From an uncultured bacterium (GTDB lineage: Bacteria > Patescibacteriota > Minisyncoccia > UBA6257 > 2-01-FULL-56-20), in assembly GCA_963807165.1 (NCBI GenBank), contig CAWDZM010000004.1, forward strand, positions 2,670 through 66,669: a stretch of DNA of 64,000 nt, given 5' to 3'. The notes below the pieces were generated by a model. That model was not told the DNA's origin and made no database searches. It saw only the letters and a list, made by a program, of their open reading frames with translations. Shown piece after piece: positions 12,212 to 42,800 of the stretch. A program made the position numbers and the translations under genes. Within the stretch, counting starts at the first letter, position 1. Each line of letters opens with the position of its first letter.

Positions 12212-12318
12212 GTGTTGTACACCCCTTTGAAGGGTGTCGCGGAGCCGCGAAGGCGGCGAGCGCCAAGGCGGCCGGTCAGCAGACCGGAACGCCGTCCCTG
12301 CAAAGGGGTGTACAACAC
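12212..12318 (+). ncRNA. Structured repeat element copy A (conserved core plus variable 18-bp closing stem), immediately upstream of the 23S processing stem
   Basis: Outer stem gtgttgtacacccctttg / caaaggggtgtacaacac encloses the core GGUGUCGCGGAGCCGCGAAGGCGGCGAGCGCCAAGGCGGCCGGUCAGCAGACCGGAACGCCGUCC, which is shared with copies B, C and D. Confidence 0.55.
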
Positions 12319-12338
12319 GAGCAAGTCAGCATTGGGAT

Positions 12339-15322
12339 GGTTGGCAAATAAGGGCGAACGGTGGATGCCTAGACTAGAAAAGGCGATGAAGGACGTGGCG
12401 TAGCAACGAAATGCCTCGGGGAGATGCGTAGCAATCTATGATCCGGGGGTGTCCGAATGGGGAAACCTAGTTGAGTAAACCTCAATTGTTTCGACGCAAG
12501 TCGATTCGCGTACCCGCTGAAGTAAAACATTCCAGTAAGCGGAGGAAAAAAGAACAAATCAGTTATTCCCCAAGTATCGGCGAGAGAACAGGGAACAGCC
12601 CAAACTAAGGTTGTGATTTATCACCGCCTTAGGGTAATAAGAAGAAAACGCTCTTTTAGTAAATAACGTAGCGCATATGCAAATGTGCGTTTCGTTATTT
12701 GCTGATTGGTGGAGGAGTAAAAAAATCATATGTTAGCCAAAGTCGTCTGGAAAGCGACGCCAGAGCGGGTGATAGCCCCCTAGGCGAAAACATTTGGTCT
12801 CCTTAGTTTTTTAACTTGAGTACTTCGGAGTAAAACAGTTCCGGAGGAATTTGCCTGTACTATCAGGTAAGGCTAAATACTTTTCTAGATCGATAGTGAA
12901 CAAGTACCGTGAGGGAAAGGTGAAAAGCAGGCCGGTGAGGCCGTTGAAATAGAACCTGAAACCGTTTGTCTACAAGGAATTGAACCACGAACGGCTTCCC
13001 GCAAGGGAGGACGAGTGGAACAATGTGCCTATTGAAGAATGATCCAACGACTTATTTTGTGTTGCAGTCTAAGCGCGCATAGCGTGAAGGCATAGCGAAA
13101 GCGAGTCTGAATAGGGCGACATATATGCAGCGCAAGATAGACCCGAAGCGTTATGAGCTTGCCTTGGCCAGGGTGAACTCCCGAGAAATCGGGAGGGAGG
13201 CCCGAACCGGTTGATTGTTCAAAATCTTCGGATGAGCTGAGGTAAGGAGTGAAAAGCTAATCGAATAACGTAATAGCTGGTTCTCTCCGAAACAGTTTTA
13301 GGACTGGCGGCAAGAGTTCCTCTTGGGGGTAGAGCACTGGATGATTGTTACAGGGGGAAACTCCGAACGATCAATCAAACTCCGAATACCGAGAGTCAAG
13401 ATCTTGCTAGTTAGACTGTGGGGGCTAAGCTCCATGGTCGCGAGGGGAAGAGCCCAGATCGTCATCTAAGGTCCCTAAATCCATGCTAAGTGTAAAAGGT
13501 AGTCATGACCCATAGACAGATAGGAGGTTGGCTTAGAGGTAGCCATCCTTTAAAGAGTGTGTAACAACTCACTATTCGACGGGTCGTGGCGCCGAAAATG
13601 TATCGGGGCTAAGCACGGTACCGAAGATACGAATTTATCCGTCCCTCGGGATGGGTAAGTGGTAGGAGAGCATTTCGGCCTGCAGAGAAGGTCGACCCGC
13701 GAGGGCGACTGGAGCGGCCGGAAGAGAAAATGTTGGAATGAGTAACCACAATCCCAATGAGAAATTGGAACCCCGAAAATCCAAGGTTTCCGTGGCACTG
13801 GCAATCAACCACGGGTTAGGCGGTCCTAAGGCGATGGCGAAAGCCGCAGTCGATGGGAAGCTGGTTAATACTCCAGCCCGACCGTACGATCATAACCAGA
13901 GGACAAAGGAGATAAGCAGATGTGCCTTATTGGTTTGGTATTCTTTGTACTAAGCGCAAGCGTGTACCGAGGGAAGGTTAAGAATTTACTTAGCCGACAT
14001 CTGTGAAGTGCCTTTCGAGAAAAATCTGGCCAAATCGAGCGTAAGGTCTCCGTACCGTAAACCGACACTGGTGGATAGGGCGAGTAGCCCAAGGGGAACG
14101 AGTGATTCATCGTTAAGGAACTAGGCAAAATAGCGGCCGTAAGTTAGCAATAAGGCCTGCCCTCGCAAGAGGGCCGCAGCTAAAGAATCTCTGGCGACTG
14201 TTTACCAAAAACACAGCTCCCTGCCAACTCGCAAGAGGATGTATAGGGGGTGACACCTGACCGATGCGAGAAGGTCAAGCTTGGGGGTGGATGGAGCAAT
14301 CTGTACTGCTCACTGAGTCAAGCCCTCGTCAATGTCAGCGATAACTATAATCGTTCTAAGGTAGCGCAATTCCTTTTCGGGTAAGTTCCGAAGCGCACGA
14401 AAGGTGTAACGACCGGAGAACTGTCTCAACGATGAGCTCGGTGAAAATGCGATTCCCGTGAAGACGCGGGATACCTGCAGCGGGACGAAAAGACCCCGGA
14501 AGCTTTACTGCAGCTTGGTATTGATTTTAGAGTTTTACTACGTAGCGTAGTGGTGAGGATTTGAAGCGATGCTCTCGGGTATCGTGGATCCGACAATGAA
14601 ACAGCCATTTTTAAAACTTTAACGTCTAACTCGTATGGAACCCTTCGGGGAAGCCATGCGAAGACAGTGCTTGGTAGGCAGTTTAAATGGGGCGTTTTCC
14701 TCCAAAAGAGTAACGGAGGAGTTTATTAAGGTCAGCTTAGCCCGGATGGAAATCGGGCAGGACGTGCAAACGCAAAAGCTGGCTTGACTGCAAGTCCTAC
14801 AAGACGAGCAGGTGCGAAAGCAGAAGTTAGTGACCCGACGGCCCTTCATAGAAAGGCCGGAGATACCGGATAAAAGCTACTCCGGGGATAACAGGCTAGT
14901 ATTGTCCGAGCGTCCCTAGCGACGACAATGCTCGGCACCTCGATGTCGGCTCGCCACAGCGCGGGGGTGTAGAAGCTCCCAAGCGTTTGGCTGTTCGCCA
15001 ATTAAAGTGGCACGTGAGCTGGGTTCAGACCGTCGTGAGACAGGTCGGTCTCTATCTGCTGCAGGCGTAGAATACTTGAGGGGAGTTGACCTTAGTACGA
15101 GAGGACTGGGTTGAACATACCTCTGGTCTACCGGCTTTGCTACCAAGTGAATTGCCGGGTAGCTATGTATGGAAGGGATAAGCGCTGAAAGCATCTAAGC
15201 GCGAAGCCCACCCCAAGATTAGGTATGCGTGATTTCGTCATAGACTATGACGTTGATAGGCGTTCGGTGTAAGGACAGCAATGTTTTTAGCCAAGACGTA
15301 CTAATAATCCCGCCAACCATCC
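12339..15322 (+). rRNA. rrl: 23S ribosomal RNA (ends approximate)
   Basis: 5' end GGTTGGCAAATAAGGGCGAACGGTGGATGCCTAGAC and 3' end ...GGGATAAGCGCTGAAAGCATCTAAGCGCGAAGCCCACC match 23S termini. Conserved blocks present throughout (GTACCGTGAGGGAAAGGTGAAAAG, GGATAACAGGCT, GACCGTCGTGAGACAGGTCGGTC). Flanked by a perfect 24-bp processing stem (12321-12344 / 15313-15336). Confidence 0.9.
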
Positions 15323-42535: not shown

Positions 42536-42660
42536 GTATTGGTGCTACATGGATATTTTTATAATCCAACTGGTCTTGGATAAAGATTCTGCGTAACTAG
42601 TTTTGTTTGAACTTCGTCCCACGCTACCCGCCCGTACTTTACGGTTTTTAGTGGAGGATA

Positions 42661-42800
42661 GGGTTTTAGGGAAAGGAGGCAAGAGCATTATTCTTCTGAG
42701 GGTATCGCGGAGCCGCGAAGGCGGCGAGCGTAAGCGCGCGGTCAGCAGACCGCGACGCGTCCCTCAAAGGAATAATGCTCTTGCCTCCTTTCCCTAACCC
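42661..42800 (+). ncRNA. Structured repeat element copy D (conserved core, about 38-bp closing stem) downstream of lepA
   Basis: Outer stem gggttttagggaaaggaggcaagagcattattcttctgaggg / ccctcaaaggaataatgctcttgcctcctttccctaaccc; core with GCCGC-GAAG-GCGGC and GCGGUCAGCAGACCGC (compensatory change). Confidence 0.55.

Follow-up and report, generated by a model that had tools for sequence, protein, structure and literature searches.

The stretch analysed here, called the window throughout, comprises 64,000 nucleotides of contig CAWDZM010000004.1 (assembly GCA_963807165.1) from an uncultured bacterium of the Patescibacteriota. Rfam 15 annotates a 23S ribosomal RNA (rRNA) gene at 12338-15321, a 5S gene at 15665-15780 and three transfer RNAs (tRNAs) in it, and leaves unannotated five copies, A to E, of an element in which a structured core of about 60 nt, a three-way junction, caps a long closing stem (Table 1). 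The core recurs from copy to copy, and the arms of the stem are specific to each locus. Copies A (sense) and E (antisense) are mirror images across the 23S gene, since A lies in the conserved rRNA leader 2 nt ahead of the 5′ strand of the 23S processing stem and E lies 4 nt past its 3′ strand, antisense to the rRNA transcript. Copy B is a third copy, near the 5S gene, 10 nt ahead of the stem that flanks it. Copy C occupies the spacer between rpsF (S6) and ssb, past the rpsF terminator hairpin and ahead of the likely ssb promoter, and copy D the spacer between lepA and a DivIC-like gene.

Table 1. Copies of the three-way-junction element in the window, the 23S processing stem and two coreless hairpins, with the occupancy of the rRNA-operon positions among related contigs (L numbers).
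Feature	Position	Strand	Arms or pairing	Core, loop or apex	Score (bits)	Orientation at rRNA position	Present in	Absent from
Copy A	12212..12318	+	12212-12234 / 12296-12318 (23 bp, 1 mismatch)	61-nt three-way-junction core, 12235-12295	103	sense	window, L047, L146	L042
Copy E	15341..15446	-	15341-15364 / 15423-15446 (24 bp)	core 15365-15422	83	antisense	window, L042, L072	L151
Copy B	15496..15641	+	15496-15520 / 15617-15641 (25 bp)	96-nt core, 15521-15616	64.6	sense	4/4 contigs covering position	none
Copy C	26739..26839	+	26739-26758 / 26820-26839 (20 bp, perfect)	core 26759-26819	100.7			
Copy D	42666..42797	+	42666-42702 / 42761-42797 (37 bp, 2 mismatches)	58-nt subtype-2 core, 42703-42760	87			
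23S processing stem, 5′ strand	12321..12345	+	25-bp perfect inverted repeat with 15312-15336					
23S processing stem, 3′ strand	15312..15336	+	pairs with 12321-12345					
Coreless hairpin	27908..27977		24-bp perfect arms	conserved 22-nt apex module TCCGACGTAAGAACGTCCACTC				
Coreless hairpin, directly past tRNA-Pro	11685..11767		33-bp perfect arms	17-nt loop				

A covariance model built from 21 clean copies and run unfiltered over the window returned the four copies reported in a preliminary description of this DNA, all where it had placed them, together with a fifth, copy E, which lies on the minus strand and had been overlooked; the next best score was 12.8 bits. The 14-nt motif of the P3 hairpin is limited to copies A to D. 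For copy E the model match covers 15353-15433 of the full element, and its arm imperfections, read on the minus strand, are two G.T pairs and one G.A. The statement in the preliminary description that two copies bracket the 23S gene needs correction: the pair is A and E, and B adjoins the 5S stem. The two extra internal hairpins that it had seen in copy B were confirmed by folding and lie in the P2/J23 region of the core. Pairing in copy D can be extended to 42661-42800, and its ortholog in L122 has the same arm. No terminator was called at the window copies. Long perfect hairpins that have no three-way-junction core also stand at tRNA or gene ends in the window, namely the two in Table 1 and a third at 26601-26636.

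Copies A to D each fold as a three-way junction with a long closing stem, with z-scores of -8.5 to -14.5 against shuffled sequences; their reverse complements fold nearly as stably. The core begins with a basal stem, RAAGG(G) paired with (C)CCTTY, from which two hairpins branch. P2 consists of P2a (3 bp), an internal loop GGA/GA, P2b (5 bp) and a GNAG tetraloop, while P3 consists of 3-4 bp, a 1-nt bulge, 6 bp, an AGNA tetraloop and a 2-nt bulge on the 3′ side. The junction between them is CCAAG, shorter in subtypes 2 and 3. Counted from the consensus, about 20 of the 26 unpaired conserved positions are purines, or about three-quarters.

The compensatory changes first noticed between the window copies hold up, and a set of 113 distinct sequences confirms them. 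Standard pairs fill 96.3% of cells in this set, against 37-49% when the partners are slid, and 23 of the 26 pairs have changed on both sides; no shuffle reached the observed values. For example, one P3 pair is U-A in 65 sequences and C-G in 41, one P2b pair is C-G in 64 and G-C in 43, and one P2a pair is U-A in 71 and G-C in 30. The large alignments are biased toward the structure through having been fitted to the model, and a MAFFT-only alignment of a smaller set agrees with them. Variants with an AT-rich P3 (L042, L024, L037) retain the AGNA loop. The core can host extra hairpins at several points, as seen from nested insertions in the P2b loop (about 75 nt in L024:6365-6524), in P3 (L150:1687-1793) and in P2 (L042:1157-1260 and window copy B).

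No Rfam 15 family matches the core, either in the whole window or, for copies A and D, at E<=10. The permissive scans of these two copies gave just generic long-hairpin microRNA models, all far below the gathering threshold. The core had not been recognised as a known RNA family when it was first described, and with Rfam empty at gathering and permissive thresholds the idea of a known family was rejected. Our literature searches found the element described nowhere. Covariation and a strand-specific fold, two marks of a structured RNA, are both found here, with a fold in single-stranded DNA (ssDNA) as a possible alternative. A third mark, a consistent transcript strand, is not: the copies are of mixed orientation, copy E is antisense to rRNA and copy C has no sense promoter.

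The arms behave very differently from the core. Their length has a median of 26 bp and ranges from 10 to 41, and 72 of 131 elements have perfectly complementary arms. Among 45 pairs of elements with the same arm, 44 are orthologous loci in related contigs and one is a low-complexity false positive, so that in this set no arm recurs at a second locus; transposition of the whole hairpin as a unit is ruled out on this ground. Outer-arm sequences match only orthologous elements among the loci examined, and a role of the arms as guides or spacers is unlikely, as none matches anything outside the elements there. The outer stems had been described as completely different in each copy. They are indeed locus-specific, except that the innermost 5-8 bp, which read RAAGG(G) with (C)CCTTY as above, are semi-conserved. 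A comparison of termini, proposed earlier as a check for a miniature inverted-repeat transposable element (MITE), found none in common. Taken with the covariation, these locus-specific arms strongly support the earlier view that selection acts on secondary structure and not on the termini. Orthologous arms may differ from each other and yet stay perfect, as in window copy C and L045. Elsewhere the arms are identical and the cores differ by compensatory pairs, as in window copy A against L047 and L146 (two pair changes) and in L127 against L052. An origin of the copy E arms in the adjacent 23S flank was considered and dropped, the comparison by eye being unconvincing.

Imperfections in the arms reveal which strand of the element matters. 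On the strand of the purine-rich core, G.U pairs outnumber A.C pairs by 58 to 18 in the raw count and by 51 to 18 when each mismatch is counted once per ortholog group (p=9e-5); in a sign test 25 locus groups are for the bias and 5 against. The ratio is the same where the neighbouring genes run opposite to the element (32:9) and where they run in the same direction (19:6). Independently of host transcription, then, there must be some process that reads or exposes this strand of the element in single-stranded form. A wobble bias limited to the junction is ruled out, because the outer arms show the bias too (26:12, compared with 25:6 in the inner 8 bp). The bias could stem from selection for a fold in sense RNA or ssDNA, or from strand-biased deamination that transcription in the sense direction brings about.

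Copies turn over between close relatives. Within the rRNA operon positions A and E are variably occupied, with orientation conserved at each position (Table 1), and L151 is without the entire E hairpin despite a flank that is 97% identical. Entire hairpins, arms included, are likewise present or absent between relatives at the E site, L094, L009:4597-4713 and L135, and the empty sites have no palindrome. Orthologs of copy C illustrate several fates: in L045 the element is intact with arms that have diverged and remained perfect, in L009 its 5′ half is deleted, and in L005 it is inverted relative to the same flanking genes. Two further elements, L140 and L153, are chimeric and have arms that are not complementary, the outcome expected of core-core recombination.

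The region around the flipped copy in L005 has an extra opposite-strand histidine-phosphatase gene (5255-5950) and about 2.8 kb inserted between ssb and the gene that follows it (1750-4590), which suggests that rearrangement breakpoints fall at elements. A mobility gene beside this copy was ruled out, the open reading frame (ORF) there being the histidine phosphatase (His_Phos_1). The 23S genes of relatives also differ by insertions: L047 has one of about 1 kb with a group I intron (L047:6327-6540, Rfam 65.7 bits; compared with window positions near 14348-14383) that the window 23S does not have, and L042 has a separate one of about 200 nt near window positions 13635-13660.

The origin of an arm can be followed where filled and empty sites are compared at a tRNA gene. 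At L135 and L136 the element lies within a small native tRNA-trailer hairpin that is empty in L071. The 3′ end of tRNA-Ala falls at L136:4964 according to ARAGORN and the element arm ends at 4970, so that the final 7 nt of the tRNA belong to the arm. In this arm the outer 17 nt, TATTTGTTGCGGTGGAC in the empty L071, are native because they are found at that empty site, where they form part of a trailer hairpin of 5 bp (CAAAT...ATTTG). In the filled site this native tRNA-end sequence recurs, inverted, as the opposite arm. The element therefore occupies the loop of a small native hairpin, whose stem was lengthened as the flank was copied into the other arm. Insertion into pre-existing hairpins, one of the possibilities raised at the outset, thus gains direct support.

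Further support comes from exchange of the apex. Loci L053 and L087 have the outer arms AAATAAAAACACCC in common and different apices, a three-way-junction core in one and a 22-nt module in the other; the 22-nt module of L087 also caps the window hairpin at 27908-27977. Directly past tRNA-Pro, three relatives have three different hairpins, just one of them with the core. At this position the window has a coreless hairpin, and L047 and L146 have one with the three-way-junction core. The core appears to be one of several hairpin 'caps'.

Other modules recur at hairpin tips. One, TCCGACGT-AAGA-ACGTCCACTC, shows covariation of its own, and others are TCCTGAAAGATTAATGTC-like, AATGCCACGNAGGAACGTGA and TAGTGATAAGAATCAAC-like. 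Besides the two coreless window hairpins of Table 1, long perfect hairpins with recurrent apices stand at L087:3259-3340, L005:1250-1327, L113:1534-1605, L061:12002-12081, L142:2630-2703, L089:515-589 and 1270-1342, L111:4344-4426, L112:3827-3913 and L118:1089-1177; some of these recurrences may be merely orthologous loci. At 5 of 8 tRNA-adjacent copies (L002:2660-2921, L040:3733-3972, L074, L012, L047:3189-3520) a direct repeat of 14-18 nt of the tRNA 3′ end lies 112-124 nt past the hairpin. Within this repeat lies a structured 'companion' of about 115 nt that forms two hairpins, is closed by inverted copies of the T-arm 3′ half and matches nothing in Rfam. The companion has the look of a small insertion at the 3′ ends of tRNAs.

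The sites fall into rRNA spacers (A, E, B), operon or gene spacers (C, D) and many positions directly against tRNA 3′ ends. A first tally of orientation against the flanking genes gave 37:16 toward antisense. This bias vanished (21:13, p=0.23) once loci were collapsed to 57 ortholog groups and ORFs restricted to at least 200 amino acids. No replication-strand bias showed either, GC skew giving a non-significant 17:26. Copies adjacent to tRNAs are antisense to the tRNA in 14 of 15 cases. Runs of at least 6 T within 10 nt past the stem occur in 12 of 114 copies on the sense side and in 5 of 114 on the antisense side, a rarity that rules out canonical intrinsic (Rho-independent) terminators. No conserved promoter was found upstream of the elements, an excess of -10-like hexamers on the sense strand being confounded by the neighbouring host promoter, and a sense promoter is not evident at copy C.

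Upstream of copy A there is a strong promoter-like site at 11832-11859 (near-consensus TTGACA-16-TATACT), and the leader is 93% conserved with L047. About 80 nt on, a terminator-like hairpin with a T-run stands at 11939-11964; both features are inside the long conserved leader that precedes copy A and the 23S gene, and the segment 11832-11964 may act as an attenuator in the leader or encode a short RNA. The operon at 12338-15780 comprises 23S and 5S genes with no 16S gene anywhere in the 64-kb window, and a tRNA-Pro and a dUTPase gene lie upstream of it. Near copy C, a strong promoter-like site, TTGACA-16-TATTAT, on the minus strand (26710-26683) faces about 70 nt of conserved sequence, at the end of which stands the bidirectional terminator hairpin 26601-26636; in the orthologous segment L045:2262-2336 ARAGORN calls an undetermined tRNA-like gene. 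A gene for a small RNA may lie here, on the minus strand of 26601-26710, in the interval from rpsF to copy C. Upstream of rpsF, a single ORF of 2245 amino acids spans 19342-26079, and its C-terminal 486 residues are 90-94% identical in L045, L009 and L005.

Wider searches, of the kind suggested in the preliminary description, extended the family far beyond the window. A genome scan with a pattern anchored on P3, limited to one genome per species, gave 48 loci, about 22 of them genuine full elements and all of these in assemblies of Paceibacterota, Parcubacteria, Kaiserbacteria or Minisyncoccia, members of the candidate phyla radiation (CPR). The remaining pattern matches, in G+C-rich genomes, have neither the rest of the core nor arms. 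When metagenomes were scanned with a pattern anchored on the opposite half of the core, 112 loci came up, most of them in peat and bog samples. Profile searches over the CPR sequence examined yielded 156 matches that reduce to 131 unique elements, a lower bound, and all 131 lie on CPR/Paceibacteria-type genome and peat-metagenome contigs. The family appears specific to this lineage of bacteria. The nearest relative of the window among the loci is the complete 881-kb chromosome OY970358.1 (L047), with 93-98% identity over the rRNA region. Among 226 long hairpins in the CPR contigs examined, 129 have the core, 36 are short-looped and many others have recurrent apex modules of 14-30 nt. Cores of 56 nt are identical at up to 7 unrelated loci, a count biased by the scan pattern. 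Two viral-contig scans gave one chance match, in coding DNA, and no genuine one, and the idea of a phage-borne element was dropped.

The explanation that we favour, tentatively and at somewhat less than even confidence, is a non-autonomous repeat element that occupies hairpin apices, passes through a strand-specific single-stranded phase, and has arms built and kept perfect by template switching, with the stem tolerated by the host or used as a processing hairpin. Its heritable unit would be the core of about 60 nt, folding on one defined strand. The core would be placed at the tip of a hairpin, either a small one already present at a gene end or tRNA trailer or one then built around it. Long arms would be made and kept complementary by intrastrand template switching during replication, in which one flank is copied into the other arm, and the core itself might promote the switch. 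Copies are long-lived at a locus and are also gained, lost, flipped, recombined and exchanged for other apex modules. In host transcripts the stem of 20-37 bp would probably act as a double-stranded RNA (dsRNA) processing hairpin or a transcript-end hairpin in either orientation. Perfect stems of this length would be substrates for double-strand-specific RNases such as RNase III whichever way they are read, which would account for copies being tolerated in rRNA spacers, tRNA trailers and operon spacers. Template switching is a mechanism that can create and maintain perfect hairpins in one step (PMC8794818), and arms made in this way would be perfect, locus-specific, composed of native flank and compensated between orthologs. 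The fold, its strand specificity, the locus-specific arms, the turnover, the arm copied from a tRNA end and the exchange of apices are observations, while the single-stranded intermediate (RNA or ssDNA), template switching as the mechanism and an RNase III-type role are inferred.

Several points weigh against this explanation. No transposase, integrase or reverse transcriptase was found beside the copies, the scan covering just one ORF next to a rearranged copy. No donor-to-recipient event was caught, and four comparisons of filled and empty sites gave no clear direct target-site duplication, flank divergence limiting the resolution. Conservation of the core across distant genomes, together with conserved orientation in the rRNA operon and constant occupancy at B, look like host-level purifying selection. 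The G.U bias in resident copies itself speaks for selection that still acts, or for exposure specific to one strand, and a purely inert repeat would need neither. Comparisons of gain and loss are biased in that loci were ascertained by presence of the core, and the orientation statistics rest on crude ORF calls.

The main rival, which we hold possible but less likely, is that the sense three-way junction is a host RNA-processing module read by a protein or RNase and, with its dsRNA stem, governs how rRNA, tRNA and operon transcripts are matured or degraded. Strong covariation, the purine-rich unpaired positions familiar from functional RNAs and the G.U bias on the sense strand all suit such a module, as do the sense copies A and B within pre-rRNA downstream of a promoter-like site, the retention of position and orientation in the rRNA operon, with B in all four covering contigs, the conserved core and the many copies that abut tRNA 3′ ends. 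It is harder to reconcile with a copy E that is antisense to pre-rRNA, with tRNA-adjacent copies that are nearly all antisense to the tRNA, with mixed orientation to protein genes and with a copy C that lies between a terminator and the next promoter. Copies A and E are moreover missing from some close relatives, L009 tolerates a half-deleted copy, and equivalent sites hold other apex modules or plain hairpins. The structured RNA or processing module envisaged in the preliminary description accordingly keeps the support of covariation and is weakened by mixed orientation, the antisense copy, presence and absence, the half deletion, the chimeras and the missing evidence of a sense promoter at C. 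Overall, the data suit a hairpin-apex repeat better than a fixed host RNA gene, because the element is abundant, dispensable, mixed in orientation, recombinogenic and exchangeable at the apex.

Improbable in our estimation are dispersed genes for a trans-acting small RNA, in which the hairpin would be transcribed or processed on its own strand and the capped hairpin would bind or sequester a protein, the arms serving as its closing stem. Strand-specific selection that is independent of host gene direction and GC skew, and cores identical at up to 7 unrelated loci, would fit this, and long stems would suit excision by a double-strand-specific RNase; against it stand the lack of a conserved promoter, with the -10-like excess confounded by the host promoter, the lack of a sense promoter at copy C and the dispensability of copies between relatives. 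A classical MITE, a REP-type or phage-borne element, or a known ribozyme or riboswitch would also be multi-copy, intergenic and hairpin-forming, often beside tRNA genes. The copies have no common termini, however, and no whole hairpin stands at a second locus; Rfam is silent even at E<=10, the viral contigs gave no genuine match, and arms that match nothing outside the elements make a guide or spacer role unlikely. This group of explanations is largely refuted, and we give it very little credence.

Returning to the hairpin-apex repeat, a bolder statement of it, which we hold doubtful, is that of a new kind of self-propagating structured nucleic-acid module that enters existing hairpins or seeds them, builds its closing stem from any flank, tRNA 3′ ends included, by promoting template switching, and is one of several interchangeable apex modules shaping CPR transcript ends; or else the core is a CPR-wide handle for an RNA-processing enzyme. 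CPR bacteria (Patescibacteria) have tiny genomes with little room for junk, and to our knowledge almost nothing is known of their non-coding RNA or repeat biology. The family described here sits on over half of all long hairpins in the contigs examined, is structurally well defined and is placed at rRNA, tRNA and operon boundaries. As a processing handle it would point to an uncharacterised RNA-maturation system in a large share of bacterial diversity. As a selfish apex element it would be a clean natural case of a conserved centre with variable arms, tractable for the study of how template switching builds and maintains hairpins. In either case the covariance model is ready for annotating CPR genomes.

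Among known systems, the nearest functional analogues would be bacterial interspersed palindromic repeats and mitochondrial double-hairpin or GC-cluster elements. The family resembles the REP/BIME, ERIC, Neisseria Correia/NEMIS and Rickettsia palindromic elements (RPE): short, non-coding, multi-copy intergenic hairpins that occur in either orientation and are present or absent between relatives. Several such bacterial interspersed palindromic repeats are cut as RNA hairpins or stabilise transcript ends. Those elements keep their arms or termini, and their copies are alike end to end; here, in contrast, every locus has arms of its own, conservation is confined to the apex and the covariation is RNA-like. 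In REP/REPIN the repeated unit is an imperfect palindrome of 20-40 nt mobilised by RAYT, whereas here it is an asymmetric apex and not the arms, and the terminal inverted repeats common to the copies of a MITE are not found. Double-hairpin elements and GC clusters of fungal and protist mitochondria are G+C-rich paired hairpins in A+T-richer spacers and rRNA regions that are mobile and associated with rearrangement. They are not known to cap long, locus-specific perfect stems, and no sequence relationship is expected.

Intervening sequences (IVS) of 23S rRNA are extended hairpins in the rRNA gene that are removed as dsRNA during maturation. They replace helices within mature 23S, whereas copies A, E and B fall beyond both the 23S gene (12338-15321) and its processing stem, and the majority of copies of the core stand elsewhere than in rRNA operons. 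Hammerhead, twister and twister-sister ribozymes are similar in having a conserved junction core, a variable closing stem and multiple copies in either orientation. No Rfam model of a ribozyme matches the core even permissively, however, and closing stems of 20-37 perfect bp are atypical of these small self-cleaving ribozymes. Similar in the behaviour of the arms are RNA hairpins made by template switching (PMC8794818), with perfect stems and multi-base 'compensatory' changes gained in one step by copying the opposite arm. Two observations fit this: orthologous arms have diverged and stayed perfect, and one arm is a copy of the 3′ end of a tRNA. Template switching is a mutational mechanism and not a family of elements, however, and it leaves the conserved apex unexplained. 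Set beside these precedents, we rate the family as an interspersed hairpin repeat of inverted architecture, with a conserved structured apex and variable arms, that carries evidence of a strand-specific phase.

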